64,000 nt of DNA from Escherichia coli O127:H6 str. E2348/69 (GTDB taxonomy: Bacteria; Pseudomonadota; Gammaproteobacteria; Enterobacterales; Enterobacteriaceae): assembly GCF_000026545.1 (NCBI RefSeq), contig NC_011601.1. The stretch is one strand, 5' to 3'. The notes beneath the pieces were generated by a model. It saw only the letters and a program-made list of their open reading frames with translations, made no database searches and was not told where the DNA came from. Below are positions 4,985-41,802 of the stretch, piece by piece; the stretch's first letter is position 1, and every line of letters starts with the position of its first letter. The position numbers and the translations under genes are program-made.

Positions 4985-7062
<2,078 letters not shown>

Positions 7063-7069
<7 letters not shown>

Positions 7070-7674
7070 CAGAACAACAACGTCGCGAACTGGACTGGGA
7101 AAAAACCGACGGACTGATGCCGGTGATTGTGCAACACGCGGTATCTGGCGAAGTGCTAATGCTGGGCTATATGAACCCGGAAGCTCTGGACAAAACCATC
7201 GAAAGCGGCAAAGTCACCTTCTTCTCGCGCACTAAACAGCGACTGTGGACCAAAGGCGAAACGTCGGGTAATTTCCTCAACGTAGTAAATATTGCGCCGG
7301 ACTGCGACAACGACACGTTACTGGTGCTGGCGAATCCCATCGGGCCAACCTGCCACAAAGGCACCAGCAGCTGCTTCGGCGATACCGCTCACCAGTGGCT
7401 GTTCCTGTATCAACTGGAACAACTGCTCGCGGAACGTAAATCCGCCGACCCGGAAACCTCCTACACCGCCAAACTGTATGCCAGCGGCACCAAACGCATT
7501 GCGCAGAAAGTGGGTGAAGAAGGCGTTGAAACCGCACTGGCAGCAACGGTACATGACCGCTTTGAGCTGACCAACGAGGCATCTGACTTGATGTATCACC
7601 TGCTGGTGTTGTTGCAGGATCAGGATCTGGATTTAACAACGGTAATTGAGAACCTGCGTAAACGGCATCAGTGA
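7063..7674 (+). CDS. hisI: Bifunctional phosphoribosyl-AMP cyclohydrolase / phosphoribosyl-ATP pyrophosphatase
   Basis: 203 aa [24 protein letters not shown]...; last gene of his operon. Confidence 0.95.
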
Positions 7675-7743
7675 GTGGCGTGCTGAGCAGGTGTGATGTT
7701 GTTGCCACACCCGGAGCCATTGCCCGATGCGCAAGCTTATCGT

Positions 7744-7802
7744 GCCTACACATTATCTCAACACACGTAGGCCGGATAAGATGCGCCAGCATCGCATCCG
7801 GC
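7744..7802. repeat. REP (repetitive extragenic palindrome) element
   Basis: GCCTACA...GTAGGCCGGATAAGATGCGCCAGCATCGCATCCGGC, typical enterobacterial REP sequence between hisI and wzzB. Confidence 0.8.
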
Positions 7803-7839
7803 AAAAAAAACGGGCATGGTGTCACCACCCTGCCCGTTT
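7803..7839 (-). terminator. Rho-independent terminator for wzzB (possibly bidirectional with the his operon)
   Basis: Hairpin CGGGCA-14 nt-TGCCCG; on the minus strand it is followed by an 8-nt U-run (A8 at 7803-7810 on plus strand); lies between convergent hisI and wzzB. Confidence 0.75.
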
Positions 7840-7859
7840 CTCTTAAATGCACAATAATA

Positions 7860-8840
7860 TTATTTCGCGTTGTAATTACGCAGCGCGTTACGCCCAAGCA
7901 CAATCCCCGCGCCAACCATGCCGCCCAGCAGCACAGCCAGAATCAAGGTAATTGCTTTCTTCGGGCTATCGCGACGAATAGGTAACGTCGGTTTCATTAC
8001 ATAGCGGTAAGCATGAATATCAAGTTTATCAACGTCAAGATTGTCGATATCCAGCAGGTTTTGACGAGTCTGATAGTAGTTTGATGAGAACACCAACGGA
8101 CGGGTCGCTTCGTGCTTAATCATCGACTCCAGCGCTTCGCTCCCCAAAAGGAACATAGTATCCTGGGTTACGTCCTGTGTCTGTTGAATCTGCGGCTTTG
8201 TCACCTGCGCCTGATTCGCATACTGCAACGCTTCCTGAATCTGACGGATACGCAGATCTTTCTGTTCTTGAGCGACCACTTCCTGCGTCTTCAGAGAATC
8301 CTGCAAGTTTTTCATTTGCAGCGCGATGTTGTCTTTCAGGTCTTGTTCCAGTTCTTCATTTACCCAGTCGTCAACTTGCTGGATATACTTCGCCAGCTGC
8401 TTCTGCGCACCTTCAGGTGTTTTACCGACATAAGAAACCGCTAAAGGTAATGACTGATTTTTAACGGTAGGCTCAATGGTCAGTTTTTCAGGTTCTTCCT
8501 GATTATCCAGCGTTTCTGCTAATGCAGAAAATGTCGTGCTGAAACGACCAATTAACATCGACTGGATCTCAGACACTTTCGGCGCTGCCGAACCATAAAT
8601 CACATTTATGGCATTGTTATAACCAGCGATTTGTCCCACATCAGGTTGAGTAACGATAGCTGTTGAAGTCCACTTTTCTTTGGCAACGGCCAGATACCCT
8701 ATAGCCAGGGCAATAGCCACAATGACAGAAATGATGATAGTCATCTTGCCGCGCCATAGTTGGACCAGTAAATCAATCAAATCAATCTGTTCCGGATCAT
8801 GGTTTTGCCCAGAAACATTATTATTTTCTACTCTCATCAT
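7860..8840 (-). CDS. wzzB: O-antigen chain length determinant (polysaccharide co-polymerase)
   Basis: ORF track 7860-8894; recognised Wzz sequence begins M(M)RVENNNVSGQNHDPEQIDL..., start taken at tandem ATGs 8837/8840; two TM segments flanking a periplasmic coiled-coil region. Confidence 0.9.
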   Translation of the reverse strand: MMRVENNNVSGQNHDPEQIDLIDLLVQLWRGKMTIIISVIVAIALAIGYLAVAKEKWTSTAIVTQPDVGQIAGYNNAINVIYGSAAPKVSEIQSMLIGRFSTTFSALAETLDNQEEPEKLTIEPTVKNQSLPLAVSYVGKTPEGAQKQLAKYIQQVDDWVNEELEQDLKDNIALQMKNLQDSLKTQEVVAQEQKDLRIRQIQEALQYANQAQVTKPQIQQTQDVTQDTMFLLGSEALESMIKHEATRPLVFSSNYYQTRQNLLDIDNLDVDKLDIHAYRYVMKPTLPIRRDSPKKAITLILAVLLGGMVGAGIVLGRNALRNYNAK

Positions 8841-13570: not shown

Positions 13571-14737
13571 TTAAACATCTTCCTTTCTAGCGCATATAGT
13601 TTTTATAACCACTAAATATGAAAATATAAGCGGCAATATGAAAAATATCATATTTACAAAATTATTATACATCATCGCAAATATGCAGGCCATAATGACA
13701 AATGGTTGAAAAACAAATGCAAAAGGAGACGTATTTCGCTGTAAATATATTAATTGAATTATGAACCCAACCAAATAGGCATATATTACGCTGAATATAC
13801 CCAATGAAACATAAGCACTTCCTACAAAACCTATAGGTGAGGTAACATCTGGAAACTCCAAGCTAATTGGTGACGCTGGAATGATTTTTTGAGGTAAAAA
13901 CCAATTGAAGAAATAAAACACATCCTGTATATTATTTTGAATAACATAGTTAAAATTAACAACAGGTGAACCGAAATAAAAACCGCCAACAAATCTAAAT
14001 AAAAAATCAAAACTCAATGATAAATTTTGTTCAGGATTTCGAATTATGCGCGTAAATGAAAATAAAAAAATGACTACACCTCCTATTATAACTCCTTTAT
14101 TAATAGATATTCTCCGTCTGGAAAATAGCATCAAAGCTAATAAAACATATAATAAAGATTGCAATTTCGCATAACTAATAAATTTGATTATTATAACCAA
14201 TATACTTATAAAAACAATAGCTCGATTATCTTTTATCAAACGAGATATACCATACATAATAATACCAAAATAGCCCAACATTACAGATATTCCATGTATT
14301 CCCAGCGGAGATGAAGCAATCTGAGACTCTATTGTTTGAGCAGAGACACCACCGCTAATATATATATTATATATATTAGCTTCGTGCATGTAATACTGGG
14401 TTACAATTAAACTTATTACATTTGAATAAAAAACAAACTTTAATAACCCATTATAAAAAGAAAAGTTGTATAAGTAGTGGCTTCTATGGTTGCTATGTTT
14501 TTGATAATTAAATAAATACGCAAAAAAAGCCCCAAAAAGAAAAAACAAATAAAAAACTAAAGATATAAAAAACACCGTATAATCAGGTTTTTGATTAAAT
14601 ATAAAGAATGAATTCCATTCTTCTTCACTGGTATATAATTGAAAAAAAGTGTTTAAAACGATTGACATTAAAATTAATATAACGGGATTAAAGAAACGTC
14701 TAAAATCATTACTTTTTGGAATTGTTATCTGCATCAT
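13571..14737 (-). CDS. wzy: O-antigen polymerase
   Basis: 388 aa, highly hydrophobic multi-TM protein with no soluble-domain motifs; position between wzx and GT genes; AT-rich. Confidence 0.7.
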   Translation of the reverse strand: MMQITIPKSNDFRRFFNPVILILMSIVLNTFFQLYTSEEEWNSFFIFNQKPDYTVFFISLVFYLFFLFGAFFAYLFNYQKHSNHRSHYLYNFSFYNGLLKFVFYSNVISLIVTQYYMHEANIYNIYISGGVSAQTIESQIASSPLGIHGISVMLGYFGIIMYGISRLIKDNRAIVFISILVIIIKFISYAKLQSLLYVLLALMLFSRRRISINKGVIIGGVVIFLFSFTRIIRNPEQNLSLSFDFLFRFVGGFYFGSPVVNFNYVIQNNIQDVFYFFNWFLPQKIIPASPISLEFPDVTSPIGFVGSAYVSLGIFSVIYAYLVGFIIQLIYLQRNTSPFAFVFQPFVIMACIFAMMYNNFVNMIFFILPLIFSYLVVIKTICARKEDV

Positions 14738-14744
14738 CTTAATC

Positions 14745-15398
14745 TTATTCCGAGTCTGGATATTTAAATTCTGAAAGAATCAGTTCTAGTTCTTCATAAT
14801 CTTTTTCCCACCATTTCATTTTTTCCAACTTATTTCTTGTATCATCATTAAAACGATAATAAAGTACTTTACAAGGAACCCCTGCAGCAACAGCATAAGG
14901 AGGTATATTCTTAGTAACAACTGAGCCAGCCCCAATAATAGCGCCATTACCTACAGTTACTCCATCCAATATAACCGTATTCGCACCCAAACATACATCA
15001 TGACCAATCATAATTCTTTTGGTTTCTTCAAATGTATGCGAATCCGGAGGTGGACAGCTTTTAGAAAGCCAATGTATTGAATTTTTCCCATAACAGAATG
15101 GATGCGTCGATATATATTCCGACACAGGATGTTTACCTAATCCCATTTTCACACTTTCTGCAATAGAACAATACCGACCGATTGACGTGTTCAATATTGT
15201 ACAATTCCTCTGAATATAAGTATGACGTCCAATATTTGAATTATAAAGCAATGTATTGTTATACACTTTTATATTCTCCTCAAATGTTACATGCCTTATT
15301 CTCGCTCCGGGATAAACACTAACGCCTTGAAAACATAGAATAATGTTTTTAATTAAATAGCATATAGGTAACAGTATATATTCTTTTATTATATTCAT
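14745..15398 (-). CDS. Hexapeptide-repeat O-acetyltransferase
   Basis: Left-handed beta-helix repeats (IGHDVCLGANTVILDGVTVGNGAIIGAGSVV); ATG at 15398 overlaps wzx stop as ATGA; ORF track extends to a GTG at 15461. Confidence 0.7.
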   Translation of the reverse strand: MNIIKEYILLPICYLIKNIILCFQGVSVYPGARIRHVTFEENIKVYNNTLLYNSNIGRHTYIQRNCTILNTSIGRYCSIAESVKMGLGKHPVSEYISTHPFCYGKNSIHWLSKSCPPPDSHTFEETKRIMIGHDVCLGANTVILDGVTVGNGAIIGAGSVVTKNIPPYAVAAGVPCKVLYYRFNDDTRNKLEKMKWWEKDYEELELILSEFKYPDSE

Positions 15399-16666
15399 CT
15401 TGCTCTCATTAATAAAAATATTCCGCCAATTGAAAAAGATATACTTGCATATGCTATCCACATCATGCCGCCAATTGAAATAGAGTTATTTCCTTTCATG
15501 AAATGGAATAAAATAAACATGCTTAATGCAGAAATAATATTACTGAACAGTATAATTCCCCCTGCGTTTAATCGAACAAGGTTTGTATAGATAAATGTAT
15601 ATGGTATATTTATTAAAACTGAGAGGCAAATAAGAGCTAAAGCCCCCCCTCCATGATTAGCTATATAATGATTTCTTGTCCATAAATATAAAATATCAGA
15701 TGAAAATATTATTGTCAGACCAATAGGGAAAGCTAATACCAATAGCATAATTATCATTTTTTTTAACGATAGAACATTAAATATACTCTTTTCCCCTTGT
15801 GATGATAAAGCTGGTAACAATGACTTCATCAAAGGATATTGTAGCTGTAAAAAAGATAATCCCAGTTGTGCAACAATAACATATACTCCATATAACTGTG
15901 TTTCCACGTAGTGTGATAATAATATTTTATCTAACTGTGAAACAAACACACCAACAATCACACCAAATGAAAATATATAGTTCTCTTTAACCAAATCAAT
16001 TAATTGAATCAATATATTATTATCTATTAAGCCTTTAAGATCTATATTATTGCGAGTAATCCATAAAAAATTAAAAATAAATTCTATACAGGTAACCACT
16101 GCGAAGGAAACTATATATACTATAGGTTCTGGATTTACCATCAATGAAATCAGCGCGACACAATGTTTACATGAAAAAAAACACACTTGGCTTAAATTAG
16201 TATTAAATTGCTTTTGAGTACCATTCCAAAAACCTATATTGAGATTATTTGCAAATTGAAATAGGAATTGAATTGCAAGCAATCTTATACAAAACTCTAA
16301 CTCCCTACTGCTATGCCCTGCATTAAACCATCTAAATGCCAACCAACCAGCCGAACTGGTTAGAAAAACCGCCCCAACAAAAGCAACAGCAATATATATC
16401 CAAAAATATGCAAAAAATATGTTTTCTGGCGTATTCGTTTTAGCAATATCGCGAGGCATAATCTGCGAACACCCAGCATCCAGAATAAGTAACATAGCCT
16501 GGATACTTAAACAAGCAGAGACGATACCCCATCCATGGGGACCTAGTAGCTTGATATAAAAGGGTATAAGGACTATTATCCCCCCCCCCATCCAAATCAT
16601 ACCAATGTAATTAAACATTGTGTTTCGTAAGAATATATTATTTTTAAAAGAGGATATTATTGACAT
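15395..16666 (-). CDS. wzx: O-antigen flippase
   Basis: 423 aa polytopic membrane protein, position and hydrophobicity typical of Wzx; contains a G9 tract (plus-strand C9 at 16579-16587). Confidence 0.7.
   Translation of the reverse strand: MSIISSFKNNIFLRNTMFNYIGMIWMGGGIIVLIPFYIKLLGPHGWGIVSACLSIQAMLLILDAGCSQIMPRDIAKTNTPENIFFAYFWIYIAVAFVGAVFLTSSAGWLAFRWFNAGHSSRELEFCIRLLAIQFLFQFANNLNIGFWNGTQKQFNTNLSQVCFFSCKHCVALISLMVNPEPIVYIVSFAVVTCIEFIFNFLWITRNNIDLKGLIDNNILIQLIDLVKENYIFSFGVIVGVFVSQLDKILLSHYVETQLYGVYVIVAQLGLSFLQLQYPLMKSLLPALSSQGEKSIFNVLSLKKMIIMLLVLAFPIGLTIIFSSDILYLWTRNHYIANHGGGALALICLSVLINIPYTFIYTNLVRLNAGGIILFSNIISALSMFILFHFMKGNNSISIGGMMWIAYASISFSIGGIFLLMRAR
16579..16587. repeat. Homopolymeric C9/G9 tract inside wzx coding sequence
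   Basis: CCCCCCCCC on plus strand, encoding GGG (MIWMGGGIIVL) near the Wzx N-terminus. Confidence 0.9.
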
Positions 16667-16678
16667 ATAGATGTTTTT

Positions 16679-18052
16679 TTATTTTTCTTTTAATAAATTA
16701 ATAATAATTGCCGTATTATTTTCCATCACGAGCTGATCACCTCTTGATTCAACGTTCAAACGCACAACAGGTTCGGTGTTGGAGGAGCGCAGGTTAAAGC
16801 GCCAGTTGGCAAAGGCCATACTGATGCCATCGGTGCGATCCACCGCCAGCGCCTCACGGCTAAAATGCTGTTCCACGCGGTTAATCGCCTCAACGGGGTG
16901 CGTGAGTTTGCTGTTGATCTCACCACTTGCCGGAAAAGCCGCCATCCGGTCGCGCACCAGTTCGCCCAGCGTTTTCCCTTTCAGGCACACCAGTTCGGCG
17001 ACCAGCAGCCACGGGATCATGCCGCTGTCGCAGTAAGCGAAATCACGGAAGTAATGGTGGGCGCTCATTTCGCCACCGTAGATAGCGTCTTCCTTACGCA
17101 TACGTTCTTTAATAAAGGCGTGTCCGGTTTTCGACATTATTGGCGTACCGCCTGCGGCAGTCACCACATCAACGGTGTTCCAGGAGAGACGTGGATCGTG
17201 GATGATCTTCGCGCCGGGATTTTTTTCGAGGAACGCCTCTGCCAGCAAACCGACAATGTAGTAACCCTCAATAAACTGCCCTTTTTCGTCAAACAGGAAA
17301 CAGCGGTCAAAATCGCCATCAAAAGCAATGCCCATATCCGCGCCGTGTTTAATGACCGCATTGCGGGTGTCGTCGCGACATTCCGGCAGTAGCGGGTTAG
17401 GAATACCGTTGGGGAAATTGCCGTCCGGCGTGTTATGCACTTTGATTAACTCCACCGGTGCGCCGAGGGCTTTAAAGCGGGCTTCAATGGCGTCCACCAC
17501 CGGACCCGCCGCGCCGTTCCCGGAGTTAATCACCAGCTTGAGCGGCGTGAGGTTTTTGACGTTGATATAACCGAACAGGTGATCAACGTAAGCTTCACGC
17601 AGATTGATTTGCTGATAGCGACCGCGTTTGGTTTCATCGACGGGAGGGAAGTCGTTGGCTTCTGCCAGACGCTGGACATCGCGCAGTCCGGTATCACCGC
17701 TGATCGGGCGAGCCCCCTCGCGCACCAGCTTCATGCCGTTGTAATCCATCGGGTTATGGCTGGCAGTAACTTCGATGCCGCCATCCACGCCGAGATGGAA
17801 CGTAGCGAAATAGATCTCTTCGGTGCCGGACATGCCGATATCCAGCACATCGACGCCCGCATCCTGTAAACCTTTCGCCAGCGCCAGTTTTAAGGTTTCG
17901 CTGGTGAGGCGGACATCACCACCTAAAACAATAGTTTTCGGTTTGAGAAATTCGCCATAGGCACGCCCAATACGCCAGGCAATATCTTCATTCAGTTCTT
18001 CGCCTAATTTTCCGCGAATATCGTAGGCTTTAAAGCAGGTTAATTTTTTCAT
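16679..18052 (-). CDS. manB: Phosphomannomutase, O-antigen copy
   Basis: 457 aa [16 protein letters not shown]..., TASHNP active-site motif; near-identical to the colanic copy cpsG except for the last ~20 residues. Confidence 0.93.
16750..18052. repeat. manB direct repeat, copy A (O-antigen locus)
   Basis: Aligns with 33740-35042 at offset 16990, roughly 96 percent identity by eye; homology ends exactly at the ATG. Confidence 0.8.
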
Positions 18053-18055
18053 TTA

Positions 18056-19513
18056 TTAGTCATCTATTTTGTAACGTTCTTTTTGACGAACAATATCATC
18101 CTCACCTAAATAATCTCCTGAACTAACTTCAATAAGATTGAGAGGAATTATACCTGGATTTTCAAGGCTATAAGTAGCACCCAGAGGAATATAAACGGAT
18201 TCATTAGCAGTAACTAAGAAAGTTTTATTATTTAACGTTACTTTTGCTGTACCTGAAAGGACAATCCAATGCTCTGAACGATGATGATGCATACGTAAGG
18301 ATAGCCCTTCCCCTGGTTTAACGACAATCTTTTTGACCTTATATCGATCTCCCTGTTCTATAGCATCAAACTTTCCCCAAGGACGAAATTCCTCGCGATG
18401 TGATAGATATTCAGAACGTTCTTGCATTTTAAGCATTTGAACAATTTTCTTAACATCCTGAACTTCGGATTTTTTTGAAACTAGAATTGCATCTTTCGTC
18501 TGAACAATAACAATATCCTCCACACCTACAGCGGCTACTAAGGCTGACTCCGAATGAATATAATTATTTTTTGTATTATAAGTCAGGATATCACCTTTGC
18601 AAACGTCCCCTGTAGGAGTTTTATCACTAACGTCCCACAATGATTGCCAAGATCCAACATCGTTCCAACCAATATCAACGGGATAGACTATACAACGCTT
18701 TGTTTTTTCCATTACTGCAAAATCAATTGATTCCGATGGACAATTTTGAAAAACATCTTTCGAAAGTCGTATAAAATCAAGATCATGGTAGGACGAAGAA
18801 ACTGTTTTTTCACATATATCGTATATATCAGGTCTGTATTTTTTTAACTCCTCTAAATATACTGATGCTTTGAACATAAACATCCCACTATTCCAGAGAT
18901 ATTTACCTGAGGAGATATACTCTTCAGCCCTTGAGCGATTAGGTTTTTCAACAAATTGTTCCACGTGATAGAATGTATTACCAACTCCACGTTGTGATTC
19001 TTTAACTATACTCCCTTTTTCTATATAACCGTAACCAGTTTCTGCATAATCAGGAATAATACCAAATGTTAAAATATTTCCTTGTTCAACAATTGAAATG
19101 GAATTTTTAATAGCATTACAAAAAACATCTGTTTTGTTTATAACATGGTCAGCTGCAAGAACTAAAAGTATAGGATCTTGTTGTTCATTACGCTTTAAGG
19201 CTGTAAATGCTGAAAGTGCTATAGCTGGTGCAGTATTTCTTCCACATGGTTCAAGAATAATGTTATCGCTTAATTGGTTTATTTGACGCAATTGTTCTGC
19301 GACCACAAAACGATGCTGCTCGTTAGTTATTACTAATGGAGTTTCGCAAGAAAGCGGGGATAGTCGTAATAAAGTTGACTGTAATAAAGTATTCTCACCT
19401 GATAATTGCAGAAATTGCTTCGGATAGTGCTCTCTTGAGAGGGGCCAAAGACGGCTACCCGTACCACCAGCCATTACAACAGCAATCAACGGTACATCAG
19501 ACATTTTTGACAT
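18056..19513 (-). CDS. manC: Mannose-1-phosphate guanylyltransferase, O-antigen copy
   Basis: 485 aa; [11 protein letters not shown] motif; AT-rich and clearly diverged from the colanic copy cpsB. Confidence 0.9.
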
Positions 19514-20967: not shown

Positions 20968-22089
20968 TTATGACTCCAGCGCGATCGCCACGTCGTAGCC
21001 GTGAGATTTCAGCAGAGAGTGTTTTTTCGCCGCTTCGAGGTCATTAGCCACCATTTCAGACACCATCTCTCTGAGGGTGATTTCCGGTTTCCAGCCCAGT
21101 TTTTCGTGCGCTTTGGTCGGGTCGCCGAGCAGCGTTTCAACTTCAGCCGGACGGAAGTAGCGCGGATCAACCTTAACGATTACATCTCCAGGTTTAACTG
21201 CTGGAGCATCCTCACCATTAACAGAAACCACTATCCCCTTCTCATCTACACCTGTGCCTTCAAAACGCAGTTTGATTCCGACTCGCTCCGCCGCCATTTC
21301 CACGAACTGACGCACGGAGTACTGAACGCCGGTCGCGATGACGAAATCTTCCGGCTGTTCCTGTTGCAGCATCATCCACTGCATTTTTACGTAGTCTTTG
21401 GCATGGCCCCAGTCACGCAGGGAATCCATATTGCCGAGGTACAGGCACGATTCCAGCCCCTGGGCGATGTTTGCGATTGCGCGGGTGATTTTGCGGGTAA
21501 CGAAGGTTTCGCCGCGGCGCGGGGATTCATGGTTGAAGAGAATACCGTTACAGGCGTACATGCCGTAGGATTCGCGGTAGTTAACGGTGATCCAGTAGGC
21601 ATACAGTTTGGCGACCGCATACGGAGAGCGTGGGTAGAACGGCGTGGTTTCTTTCTGCGGAATTTCCTGCACCAGACCGTACAGTTCAGAAGTGGAAGCC
21701 TGATAAAAACGGGTTTTCTTTTCCAGACCGAGGAAGCGGATCGCCTCCAGCAGGCGCAGCGTACCCATCGCATCGACGTCAGCGGTATATTCCGGTGACT
21801 CAAAAGAAACCGCAACGTGACTCATTGCGCCCAGGTTGTACACTTCATCCGGCTGCACTTCACACAAAATGCGCGTCAGGTTGGAGGTATCTGTCAGATC
21901 GCCATAATGCAGATGGAATTTCGGGTTGCAGGTGTGCGGATCCTGATAAATGTGATCCACGCGCTCGGTGTTGAATGACGATGCACGACGCTTAATACCA
22001 TGCACCTCGTAACCTTTTTCCAGCAGAAACTCTGCCAGGTAAGAACCGTCTTGTCCGGTTATGCCAGTAATGAGAGCGACTTTAGCCAT
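20968..22089 (-). CDS. gmd: GDP-mannose 4,6-dehydratase, O-antigen copy
   Basis: ATG at 22089 gives [18 protein letters not shown]...; ORF track begins at an upstream TTG (22119). Confidence 0.93.
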
Positions 22090-33671: not shown

Positions 33672-35042
33672 TTACTCATTCAGCAACGTCAGCAGAGTTC
33701 GCGTTCGCGCTTCCATCAGCGGCACATCACCGCGCGATTCCACATTCAACCGCACCACCGGTTCGGTGTTGGAGGTGCGCAGGTTAAAGCGCCAGTCGGC
33801 AAAGGTCATGCTGATGCCATCGGTACGATCCACCGCCAGCGCCTCACGGCTAAAATGCTGTTCGACGCGATTAATCGCCTCAACGGGTTGCGCCAGTTTG
33901 CTGTTGATCTCACCGCTTGCCGGAAACGCCGCCATCCGGTCGCGCACCAGTTCGCCCAGCGTTTTTCCTTTCAGGCACAACAGTTCGGCTACCAGCAGCC
34001 ACGGGATCATGCCGCTGTCGCAGTAAGCGAAATCACGGAAGTAATGGTGAGCGCTCATTTCGCCACCGTAGATGGCGTCTTCCTTGCGCATCCGTTCTTT
34101 AATAAAGGCGTGTCCGGTTTTCGACATTACCGGGGTGCCGCCTGCGGCAGTCACCACATCAATAGTGTTCCAGGAGAGACGCGGATCATGGATGATCTTC
34201 GCGCCGGGATTTTTTTCGAGGAACGCTTCTGCCAGCAGGCCGACAATGTAGTAGCCCTCGATAAACTGCCCTTTTTCGTCAAACAGAAAACAGCGGTCAA
34301 AATCGCCATCAAAGGCAATGCCCATATCCGCGCCGTGTTTGATGACCGCATTGCGGGTGTCGTCGCGACATTCCGGCAGCAGCGGGTTAGGAATACCGTT
34401 GGGGAAATTGCCGTCCGGTGTGTTGTGTACTTTGATTAATTCCACGGGCGCGCCGAGGGCTTTAAAGCGGGCTTCGATGGCGTCCACCACCGGACCCGCT
34501 GCGCCATTCCCGGAGTTAATCACCAGCTTGAGCGGCGTGAGGTTTTTGACGTTGATATAACCGAACAGGTGATCAACGTAAGCGTCACGCAGATTAATTT
34601 TCTGATAGTGACCGCGTTTGGATTCATCAACGGGAGGGAAGTCGTTGGCTTCTGCCAGGCGCTGGACGTCGCGCAGTCCGGTATCACCGCTGATCGGGCG
34701 AGCCCCTTCGCGCACCAGCTTCATGCCATTGTAATCCATCGGATTATGGCTGGCGGTAACTTCGATGCCGCCATCCACGCCGAGATGGAACGTGGCGAAA
34801 TAGATCTCTTCGGTGCCGGACATGCCAATATCCAGCACATCGACGCCCGCATCCTGTAAACCTTTCGCCAGCGCCAGTTTTAAGGTTTCGCTGGTGAGAC
34901 GAACATCACCGCCTAACACAATGGTTTTCGGTTTGAGAAATTCGCCATAGGCGCGACCAATGCGCCAGGCAATATCTTCATTCAGTTCTTCGCCTAATTT
35001 CCCGCGAATATCATAGGCTTTAAAGCAGGTTAATTTTTTCAT
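33672..35042 (-). CDS. cpsG: Phosphomannomutase, colanic acid copy
   Basis: ATG at 35042 gives [16 protein letters not shown]...; ORF track extends upstream to 35090. Confidence 0.95.
33740..35042. repeat. manB direct repeat, copy B (cpsG, colanic acid locus)
   Basis: See copy A. Confidence 0.8.
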
Positions 35043-37897: not shown

Positions 37898-38376
37898 AAT
37901 CCGGGTACTCCGGCACGCTTCTCAGCGAGAAAATAGGCGCGGCTGTTAGCGTGAACATCGTTACTGGCGAGCAGCGCGTCCGGCGTCAGCCAGCGGTAAT
38001 CGTCATGCTGCTCATCCGGCATTAACAGCTCTTCTTCCGCTACCCTGAAGCGAAAACCGAGCACCACATAGTGAGTGGTGAAATCCGTGCCGGAGAAGTT
38101 GTCGTCATAAAAGTGCTGCCAGACACCGTAAAACTGGCCTGCTGTTATCTGCAGACGCAGCCCCAGTTCCGCCATCGTCAGCCGCTCAAATGCGGCTTCC
38201 AGCGTTTCGTCTTTCTGCACGCGCCCTCCCGGCACAAACCAGTAACCCTGCGCCGGGCGGTTGGTTCTTTTGCCAAGCAGAAACTCGCCGCGACTGTTCT
38301 CGACAATAAAGTCGAGAGAGACAAGCGGAGTGGAGCGCACTACCGTGGCAAAGTCTTCCTGACGTAAAAACATCAT
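37894..38376 (-). CDS. gmm: GDP-mannose mannosyl hydrolase (Nudix), colanic copy
   Basis: 160 aa (wcaH); Nudix box present; tandem ATGs at 38376/38373. Confidence 0.93.
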
Positions 38377-39341
38377 TACCCCCGAAAGCGGTCTTGATTC
38401 TCAAGGAACCACTGGTAAGTGCTGGCAAGCCCCGCTTCCAGTGAGATTTCGTGATACCAGCCAAGCTGATGCAGGCGCGTCACATCCAGCAGTTTGCGCG
38501 GCGTACCATCCGGTTTACTGGCATCAAAAACCACCCGACCTTTGTAACCCACCACTTTGGCGATGGTTTGCGCCAGTTCACGGATGGTGCAGTCAACGCC
38601 CGTGCCGACGTTAATGTGCGACAACATCGGCTGGGTGTTTTCCAGCCAGACTTCGTGCGCCAACTCCATCACATGAATGCTTGCCGCCGCCATATCATCG
38701 ACGTGCAGAAATTCGCGCATCGGTGTACCGCTGCCCCACACCACCACGTCCGGTGCATTCTGTGCCGTCGCCTCGTGGAAGCGACGCAGCAATGCAGGTA
38801 TCACATGGGAGTTACTCGGGTGGAAGTTGTCATGCGGCCCGTACAGGTTGGTCGGCATGACTGAGCGGTAATCGCGTCCGTACTGGCGATTGTAAGATTC
38901 GCACAGTTTGATCCCGGCGATTTTGGCAATAGCATAAGGCTCGTTAGTCGGCTCCAGCGTGCCCTTCAACAGCTCGCTTTCTGCCATCGGCTGTTTTGCC
39001 AGTTTCGGGTAGATACAGGACGATCCAAGAAACAGCAGTTTGTTCACGTCGTTCTGATGCGCGGCGTGAATGATGTTGCTCTCAATCATCATGTTCTGGT
39101 AGATGAAATCCGCCGGATAGGTGTTGTTGGCAACAATGCCGCCCACTTTCGCCGCCGCCAGATAGACCTGGTCAATGCGTTCGCTGGCAAAGAAATCATG
39201 CACCGCGCGGCTGTCCAGCAGGTTCAGCTCGTCGCGGGTGCGTAATACCAGTTCCACATCACCGCGCTGTTCGAGCTGCCGCCTGATGGCAGAACCGACC
39301 ATTCCGCGATGGCCAGCGATAAAAATGCGTTGTCTACTCAT
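38376..39341 (-). CDS. fcl: GDP-L-fucose synthase, colanic copy
   Basis: 321 aa (wcaG); identical protein to the O-antigen copy. Confidence 0.95.
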
Positions 39342-39343
39342 GC

Positions 39344-40465
39344 TTATGACTCCAGCGCGATCGCCACGTCGTAGCCGTGAGATTTCAGCAGAGAGTGTTT
39401 TTTCGCCGCTTCGAGGTCATTAGCCACCATTTCAGACACCATCTCTCTGAGGGTGATTTCCGGTTTCCAGCCCAGTTTTTCGTGCGCTTTGGTCGGGTCG
39501 CCGAGCAGCGTTTCAACTTCAGCCGGACGGAAGTAACGCGGATCAACGGCGATAATCACATCACCCGGTTTAACGCCCGGCGCGTCATGCCCGGTGACGG
39601 AAACCACAATGCCCTTCTCTTCAACGCCCGTGCCTTCAAAGCGCAGTTTGATGCCCAGCTGTGCTGCCGCCATTTCCACGAACTGACGCACGGAGTACTG
39701 AACGCCGGTCGCGATAACGAAATCTTCCGGCTGTTCCTGTTGCAGCATCATCCACTGCATTTTTACGTAGTCTTTGGCATGGCCCCAGTCACGCAGGGAA
39801 TCCATATTGCCGAGGTACAGGCACGACTCCAGCCCCTGGGCGATATTGGCGATTGCGCGGGTGATTTTGCGGGTAACGAAGGTTTCGCCGCGGCGCGGGG
39901 ATTCATGGTTGAAGAGAATACCGTTACAGGCGTACATGCCGTAGGATTCGCGGTAGTTAACGGTGATCCAGTAGGCGTACAGTTTGGCGACAGCATACGG
40001 AGAGCGTGGGTAGAACGGCGTGGTTTCTTTCTGCGGAATTTCCTGCACCAGACCATACAGTTCAGAGGTGGAAGCCTGATAGAAACGGGTTTTCTTTTCC
40101 AGACCGAGGAAGCGGATCGCCTCGAGCAGGCGCAGCGTACCCATCGCATCGACGTCTGCGGTATATTCCGGTGACTCAAAAGAAACCGCAACGTGGCTCA
40201 TTGCGCCCAGGTTGTACACTTCATCCGGCTGCACTTCACGCAAAATGCGTGTCAGGTTGGAGGTATCACTCAGGTCGCCATAATGCAGATGGAATTTCGG
40301 GTTGCAGGTGTGCGGATCCTGATAAATGTGATCCACGCGCTCGGTGTTGAATGACGATGCACGACGCTTAATACCATGCACCTCGTAACCTTTTTCCAGC
40401 AGAAACTCTGCCAGGTAAGAACCGTCTTGTCCGGTTACACCGGTGATGAGAGCGACTTTTGACAT
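39344..40465 (-). CDS. gmd: GDP-mannose 4,6-dehydratase, colanic copy
   Basis: 373 aa [18 protein letters not shown]... Confidence 0.95.
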
Positions 40466-40491
40466 GTCTTATTCCTCTGTATTTTTTGAAT

Positions 40492-41040
40492 TTATTCAGT
40501 TTCAACGCGTTCGCGTATCACCACTGCGGGATTCCCCCGGCAAACCACATTTGCCGGAAGCGTTTTAAAAACACTGCTTCGTGCACCCACGACGGTGCCG
40601 TCGCCAATCGTGACGCCAGGGGCAACAAAAACATCGGTTGCCAGCCAGCATTTCTCGCCAATCACAATAGGCGTAGCATTAATGGTGAAATGTTGACTTG
40701 CATGGTCGTGGCTACCGGTGCATAAATAACTTTTTTGCGATATCACCGAATGTGCGCCAATGGTTATTTCACCGAGGGTATATAAATTGACGTCATCGCC
40801 GACCCACGCGTAATCACCTAAGGTTAATTTCCACGGATAGGTAATTTTTACTGACGGACGAATAACTACGTTTTTTCCTATTTTTGCGCCGAATAAACGT
40901 AATAAAAATGCCCGCCAGCGATACAATACTTGTGGCGACCAGGCAAATATTGTTGCCTGTACTGCCCACCATAATTGCACTTTAATAGCGTTGCCGCCCC
41001 GGAACCCTTTCGGCACCGAGAAACCGCTTAAATCTTGCAT
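40492..41040 (-). CDS. wcaF: Colanic acid acetyltransferase (hexapeptide repeat)
   Basis: 182 aa. Confidence 0.9.
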   Translation of the reverse strand: MQDLSGFSVPKGFRGGNAIKVQLWWAVQATIFAWSPQVLYRWRAFLLRLFGAKIGKNVVIRPSVKITYPWKLTLGDYAWVGDDVNLYTLGEITIGAHSVISQKSYLCTGSHDHASQHFTINATPIVIGEKCWLATDVFVAPGVTIGDGTVVGARSSVFKTLPANVVCRGNPAVVIRERVETE

Positions 41041-41055
41041 TGGTTCTCCTTATAT

Positions 41056-41802
41056 TCAGACTTTGTTATATAAGGCTTTCGTCTTTGAGGTAGTACGTTG
41101 GCGTAAATGCCAGGATAATTCAGCCCAAAAGCCAGGTACATGTAATATTTGTCGTTGGACTTTTTTCGCGTCAGCACACAATTCCATATTATTGGTGGTA
41201 GATACCCCACCCATGGAAAATTCAGACACCAGGCCATTGAGTTTTTTAAATGCATAACCGGCTTTATACATTTTGGCTGCCAGCGCGTAGTCGGAAGAAA
41301 CTTTATATTCCAGGTCATAACGCCATTTTTTCAAGCCGGATACAGGGAAAAATATCGCCTGATGACTGGCGGGCAGGCTGTGATAAATATACCAGCCCGG
41401 TTTGGCGCTACGTTTAATTTTATGCCCGTCGCCAAAATCCAGCAGCGCATCGCCGGTGATCATCATGTTATCTTTTTGCATTTTTAACTTACGGACAAAA
41501 TTTGCGGCATCCTGATGAAAAATATCGCCCGAATTGAGAAACAACGCGAACTTGCCTTGTGCCATCGCAATGCCTTTGTTCATGGCGTCGTAGATACCGT
41601 TATCTGGCTCGCTGACAAAGCGTAGGTTATAGATACCATTGAGATTTTCCAGATACTCACGGGTGCCGTCATTGGAACCGCCATCGACAACAATCCATTC
41701 GAAGCTGATATCGTCCACCTGCGCCAGATGCGCCAGCGAGGCATGTGTTTTGACTATCCCTTCGAGGTTACGAAACGCGACAGTGATTATGCTAAGCAAC
41801 AT
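41056..41802 (-). CDS. wcaE: Colanic acid glycosyltransferase (GT2)
   Basis: 248 aa. Confidence 0.9.

Follow-up and report, generated by a model that had tools for sequence, protein, structure and literature searches.

The O-acetyltransferase gene in the O-antigen cluster of Escherichia coli O127 very probably begins at an ATG overlapping the stop codon of wzx

The window analyzed here, a 64 000-nucleotide stretch of the chromosome of Escherichia coli O127:H6 str. E2348/69 (NC_011601.1), contains an O-antigen gene cluster for which RefSeq gives the order gmd, fcl, gmm, manC, manB (cpsG), wzx, acetyltransferase, wzy, family-2 glycosyltransferase, alpha-1,2-fucosyltransferase, gnd, ugd, and wzzB. 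The RefSeq names place both wzx and wzy in the O90/O127 family, identifying the locus as an O90/O127 O-antigen cluster. A stretch of ~1.1 kb (1101 bases) matched 10 of 5426 complete E. coli genomes: identity was 100% for three chromosome records of E. coli O127:H6 / E2348/69 and ≥99.5% for the seven others. On the minus strand, the open reading frame of the acetyltransferase runs from 15461 to 14745 (238 codons), opening with a GTG (15461–15459) within wzx and closing with a TAA (14747–14745). A second candidate start, an in-frame ATG (15398–15396), lies 63 nt (21 codons) 3′ of the GTG. The wzx frame (16666–15395) ends with a TGA (15397–15395) that combines with this ATG into an ATGA (15398–15395, sequence agATGAat), an overlap of 4 nt; use of the GTG would extend the overlap to 67 nt. 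The initial annotation had described this arrangement, and the sequence and the list of open reading frames bear it out: the open frame from the GTG, the ATGA, the 67-nt overlap, and an N-terminus that changes by 21 residues with the choice of start. Its gene identities (wzx and a hexapeptide O-acetyltransferase) also agree with the RefSeq names and with Pfam Hexapep. The features are listed in Table 1.

Table 1. Features at the junction of wzx and the O-acetyltransferase gene (positions in the window).
Feature	Coordinates	Strand	Basis or remark
O-acetyltransferase CDS, favored reading, 217 aa	14745..15398	-	RefSeq CDS WP_012578939.1; aligned orthologue Met
ATGA stop/start overlap, 4 nt	15395..15398	-	sequence; annotation of L001 (wzx 6035-7306, acetyltransferase 7303-7956)
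wzx, O90/O127-family O-antigen flippase, 423 aa	15395..16666	-	open reading frame and RefSeq
21-codon off-frame open stretch in the wzx 3′ end, outside the acetyltransferase	15399..15461	-	not covered by homologues
Candidate GTG	15459..15461	-	third base of a wzx Met codon plus first two of the adjoining Trp codon (atG TGg)
GAGAG, weak Shine-Dalgarno-like, 4 nt 5′ of ATG15398	15403..15407	-	duplex energy
A4 run, acetyltransferase codons 4-5	15384..15387	-	extra A in strain CM2010-0578/1
Internal ATG, Met85 of the 217-aa protein; start of 133-aa database entries	15144..15146	-	sequences of P0122 and P0125

The encoded protein belongs to the hexapeptide-repeat (left-handed β-helix) acyltransferases, with tandem repeats scoring above the gathering cut-offs of Pfam PF00132 (Hexapep, 49.6 bits, cut-off 27) and PF14602 (32.6 vs 27). 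His111 and Pro112 (238-aa numbering; His90 in the 217-aa protein) were invariant in a 22-sequence alignment, the His being a candidate counterpart of the catalytic His of CatB/Vat. Structural relatives include CatB, Vat, and ApmA-type enzymes (E ~1e-19, e.g. PDB 6pu9, 1khr, 3eev, 1xat); the likeness to CatB/Vat covers the hexapeptide-repeat domain and the C-terminal region, and RefSeq names the protein 'CatB-related O-acetyltransferase'. Scores far below the equivalog cut-offs of NCBIfam Vat (NF000311, 95.3 vs 300 bits) and CatB (NF000490, 83.9 vs 350 bits) mark it as related to the Vat/CatB antibiotic acetyltransferases but not a member. The WbbJ equivalog (NF007240) was rejected as well (71.1 vs 243 bits); the alignment with this LPS O-acetyltransferase spans nearly the full length. 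Unlike CatB/Vat, the O127 gene lies within an O-antigen cluster between wzx and wzy, it is predicted to act on L-fucose in the O unit rather than on an antibiotic (based on context and PMC7685785), and its product carries an extra hydrophobic N-terminal segment of ~25 residues, common only to polysaccharide-cluster homologues. A FEMS review of E. coli O antigens names the O127 gene wbiO and its product WbiO, and describes O-acetylated L-fucose in both the O127 and O90 units (PMC7685785). A literature search by name for WbiO or for WerU, the O90 homologue, yielded nothing beyond this review. Family membership and cluster context together point to an acetyl-CoA-dependent β-helix O-acetyltransferase that would modify the fucose of the O unit.

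Homologue alignment, one of the checks proposed in the initial annotation and the right one, clearly favored the ATG within the ATGA, leaving the start ambiguity raised in the initial annotation a nominal one. A search with the 238-aa form as query retrieved 1708 homologues, with a best query coverage of 91–92%, corresponding to the 217-aa part only. The two closest relatives (P0002 from Salmonella bongori and P0003 from L006; 71% identity) are both 217 aa long. Projected onto the 238-aa form, the N-termini of the 120 best homologues had their median at residue 22.5, with 66 of them within ±5 residues of Met22. Only four alignments reached upstream of residue 22, adding a few columns with scattered matches, and none of the 120 aligned convincingly with the 21-residue extension. 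A consistent alignment of homologues with the longer N-terminus, which the initial annotation had named as refuting its reading, did not emerge. Most called Met starts in the 22-sequence alignment share the Met22 column, protein conservation begins at this Met (MNIIKEY, MNIVKEY, and MNILKEY in O127 and its orthologues), and position 2 of the NCBIfam WbbJ profile (NF007240) is matched to residue 23 (238-aa numbering). The RefSeq CDS (654 nt, 217 aa, WP_012578939.1) begins 4 nt before the end of wzx, and the same ATG geometry is annotated in the other genomes inspected. The exact 217-aa sequence occurred in 306 contigs, including the original E2348/69 annotation (CAS09722.1 / UniProt B7UT70), and the 238-aa form was absent from a collection of ~15 billion proteins. 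A search of a paper library found no ribosome-profiling or N-terminal proteomic data on E2348/69.

The junctions of homologous wzx–acetyltransferase clusters provide a second line of comparison. Four of the five carry an in-frame stop 1, 1, 5, or 2 codons 5′ of the Met aligned to ATG15398, so that a longer N-terminus is impossible in these clusters. The wzx stop itself (TAG or TAA) occupies the acetyltransferase frame directly 5′ of the ATG in S. bongori (L003) and L006. L012 and L014 (45–47% identical) have their in-frame stops at a distance of 5 and 2 codons 5′ of the ATG, and none of the intervening codons is a start. The fifth, distant cluster (L010) has a GTG as the aligned codon, and its own start is uncertain: the gene caller's choice was an ATG situated 15 codons further upstream, which gives a 55-nt overlap with the flippase gene (L010:2700–2760), the GTG aligned to Met22 lies at 2745 with AAGGA before it, and another GTG, at 2751, forms a GTGA with the flippase stop. 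The equivalent junctions are tight in all five clusters (overlaps of 4 and 10 nt, abutting stop and start, or a 3-nt gap), which suggests that the feature maintained across them is close coupling and not the precise ATGA geometry.

The S. bongori (P0002) and L006 (P0003) orthologues resemble O127 in length, identity, and gene order, the shared synteny comprising wzx, acetyltransferase, wzy-like, GT2, GT11 fucosyltransferase, gnd, ugd, and wzz. They differ in a junction that is one base longer, with the stop in frame directly before the ATG and zero overlap. A three-way DNA alignment showed the O127 junction (ATGAGAGCA-AGATGAAT) to be one base shorter than those of the two orthologues (TTGAGAAAATAGATGAAT and ATGAGAAAATAAATGAAT). 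Owing to this one-base difference, wzx and the acetyltransferase are in different frames in O127; wzx consequently reads on to the TGA embedded in ATG-A(AT), whose final A is supplied by the second acetyltransferase codon (AAT), and the wzx-internal GTG falls in phase with the acetyltransferase. A single base turns the abutting TAG/TAA-ATG of the orthologues into the ATGA of O127, and the wzx C-terminus (WIAYASISFSIGGIFLLMRAR, followed by the stop) aligns to the orthologue ends WIMYASISFLIGGTFVLLRK and WIMYAGISFVIGGLFVLMRK, each likewise followed by its stop. The GTG arises from a Met-Trp pair of wzx (G-M-M-W-I) that is conserved in orthologous Wzx proteins; the orthologues possess the same GTG, but out of phase with the acetyltransferase. 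The peptide encoded in the extension frame is not conserved (VDSICKYIFFNWRNIFINESK in O127 vs VDNVRQYFIFDRWYICFVEKI and VDYVRGNIVCHWWFICLDEKI in the orthologues). The S. bongori cluster fits the relation between the Salmonella O13 antigen and E. coli O127 that is the subject of a paper in the review's reference list (PMC7685785).

Taken from these comparisons, the acetyltransferase is very probably translated from ATG15398 as a 217-aa hexapeptide-repeat O-acetyltransferase, with GTG15461 and the following 21 codons representing an alternative frame, open by chance, of the last transmembrane-like segment of wzx. The position of the start is indicated by comparative sequence evidence. The junction is an ordinary one, already known, and the RefSeq annotation already has the correct start.

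A protein starting at GTG15461 (238 aa, 67-nt wzx overlap) is highly improbable. No start codon of the open frame lies before the GTG, and it is preceded by GGCGG at a distance of 6 nt, with a slightly better anti-Shine-Dalgarno duplex (−4.8 kcal/mol) than the GAGAG before ATG15398 (−2.7 kcal/mol). Scored as duplexes with the 16S 3′ tail (background mean −2.8 kcal/mol), the Shine-Dalgarno check called for in the initial annotation therefore put the GTG nominally ahead, but failed to discriminate, since both sites are within background: 22–29% of random sites reach −4 to −5 kcal/mol, and the GAGAG value equals the background mean. An equally weak GAGAA precedes the ATG in the orthologues, and Shine-Dalgarno pairing is nearly absent in the low-GC O-antigen genes (wzx +0.2, manB 0.0, acetyltransferase −2.7, wzy −3.5 kcal/mol). 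Nor is the openness of the frame exceptional. The open stretch 5′ of the ATG comprises 30 codons, to an in-frame TAA (15488–15486), in DNA of 28–34% GC. At off-frame stop frequencies of 0.095 per codon (five low-GC O-antigen genes) or 0.059 (this wzx frame), the probability of 30 open codons is ~0.05 to 0.16, and 19 off-frame stop-free runs of ≥30 codons occur in the five genes, placing the open extension within chance; such a stretch holds an ATG, GTG, or TTG with a probability of ~0.86. Against the 238-aa form stand its extension without convincing homologue alignment, the orthologue stops directly before the equivalent ATG, and a GTG that is forced by the wzx Met-Trp codons and out of phase in the orthologues; no gene caller produced it. 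Among the E. coli genomes with this cluster that were compared (n = 10), the 63-nt stretch contained no SNPs and was hence uninformative. When E. coli genomes were searched for more distant DNA matches, no additional junctions came up; the only match, 102 nt long, was to hexapeptide repeats in unrelated acetyltransferases.

Use of both starts, with a major 217-aa form and a minor 238-aa isoform begun inside wzx, would be permitted by the sequence, as the frame is open in O127 and the GGCGG might allow occasional initiation at the GTG. We consider it very unlikely. The extension is limited to the O127/O90 lineage, was created by the 1-nt junction difference, and is unconserved, which indicates no selected function, and ribosomes generally initiate poorly within a region that is being translated in a different frame. 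It is very unlikely that, in O127/O90 only, the 1-nt change placed a conserved wzx-internal GTG in phase and so yielded a minor isoform of 238 aa whose N-terminus is newly extended by 21 residues. A true start further downstream, at the internal ATG 15146 (133 aa) or at a GTG giving a 173-aa form, is likewise most improbable. Database entries of 133 aa (P0122, P0125) and 173 aa (P0123) exist, and according to the review, O127 WbiO is identical to the O90 homologue's 3′ part (PMC7685785). However, where L016, L020, and L021 have 133-aa calls, their DNA retains an intact 217-codon frame from the ATGA, the remaining 133-aa calls derive from truncated contigs or a homopolymer-indel assembly, and residues 1–84 are conserved in the 71%-identical orthologues and hold part of the β-helix domain. 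Between the E. coli and E. fergusonii alleles, changes in codons 1–84 are, by reading of the alignment, mostly synonymous or conservative and leave the frame intact, consistent with translation that begins upstream of the internal Met.

Initiation at ATG15398 most likely requires ribosomes that have only just completed wzx. Such ribosomes would end at the wzx UGA and re-initiate one base upstream, tying synthesis of the acetyltransferase to that of the flippase within the O-antigen operon. We propose reinitiation because the ATG overlaps the wzx stop and the Shine-Dalgarno sequence is weak; the mechanism is most likely in view of the geometry and of general knowledge of 4-nt overlaps. An overlap of 4 nt is the commonest between bacterial genes, and termination-reinitiation at 4-nt ATGA overlaps is classical translational coupling. 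The O127 genes form such a pair, the downstream start overlapping the upstream stop on the same strand (15398–15395), and resemble other ATGA-overlap pairs in strand, operon, ATG/TGA overlap, and weak Shine-Dalgarno sequence, with no structural difference. In the orthologous clusters the exact geometry is not conserved: stop and start abut as TAG-ATG or TAA-ATG, overlap by 10 nt, or are separated by 3 nt. Indirect pointers to coupling are the weak Shine-Dalgarno sequence (−2.7 kcal/mol) and a junction RNA without unusual structure, local folding being no more stable than that of shuffled sequence (z = 0.48). The low-GC O-antigen genes lie close together, the distance from stop to start within the cluster ranging from −8 to +12 nt (starts including those at 16666–16690 and 18052–18075), and coupling along the operon seems to be what their expression relies on.

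The 133-aa entries correspond to residues 85–217 and fall in the 90%-identity cluster of the protein (P0122, UniProt Q5J7C9 'Putative O-acetyltransferase'; P0125, E. fergusonii). In a JGI metagenome contig (L016:1749–2405) and in E. fergusonii (L020:1749–2405 and L021), the frame is intact from the ATGA upstream of the 133-aa call, which identifies the call there as a mis-called start. The instances in L017–L019 lie on contigs that begin inside the gene. In strain CM2010-0578/1 (NZ_CP087564.1; L002 / L015), an extra A in the A4 run shifts the frame, leaving only a 133-aa C-terminal CDS annotated. This assembly contains 16 single-base or two-base indels in the 3.1 kb of wzx-wzy (equivalent to 13571–16666 of the window), many in T or G runs, and a few substitutions; as a result, wzx and wzy are frameshifted pseudogenes in RefSeq, and the acetyltransferase is truncated there. 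The pattern suggests homopolymer error of long reads and not decay of the O-antigen cluster. In every other E. coli genome examined, the 217-codon frame is intact. The review suggests that the difference in fucose acetylation between O127 and O90 stems from WbiO being a shortened version of the O90 homologue (PMC7685785). At least part of the basis for this view may be a difference in start site or annotation and not a real gene difference. For annotation, neither the 238-aa nor the public 133-aa reading should be used; the biological weight of the result is small, as the start is the annotated one and a 4-nt overlap is commonplace.

Several further observations were made at the locus and in related contigs. 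A module of wzx, acetyltransferase, and wzy-like genes recurs in several unrelated samples with 45–71% protein identity (L003–L005 of S. bongori, L006, L012/L013, L014, and L010/L011) and carries the GT11 fucosyltransferase and GT2 glycosyltransferase genes where contigs extend far enough. Two allele groups were distinguished among the genomes compared, one with Tyr213 (E2348/69, Z1323HEC0011) and one with Cys213 (S1, MB22, E. fergusonii); several linked substitutions in wzy (13571–14737) accompany the groups defined at the acetyltransferase codon 213 site (14745–14762). These groups might correspond to O127 and O90. The Logan contig L017 (L017:1–1873) joins the 3′ 730 bp of the locus (99.9%, from 15252) to unrelated Rnf, ferredoxin, and NusG_II genes on the opposite strand and is probably a chimeric metagenome assembly.

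The record NZ_CP059840.2 (E2348/69; L001:1–1250, compared with 21451–22083 and ~37930–41076 of the window) joins wcaE-wcaF of the colanic acid region (~41 kb) directly to a hybrid gmd, in which all 20 mismatches to the O-antigen gmd lie in the first ~620 bp and the remainder is identical. The direct join implies that this assembly lacks the ~19 kb that separate the two gmd copies in the window, the cause being recombinational deletion in that stock or else a collapse during assembly. A second phosphomannomutase copy (33711–35042) lies in the colanic acid region and is 92–94% identical to the O-antigen manB/cpsG (~16.7–18.0 kb); like the duplicated gmd-fcl, it offers a recombination substrate between the two clusters.
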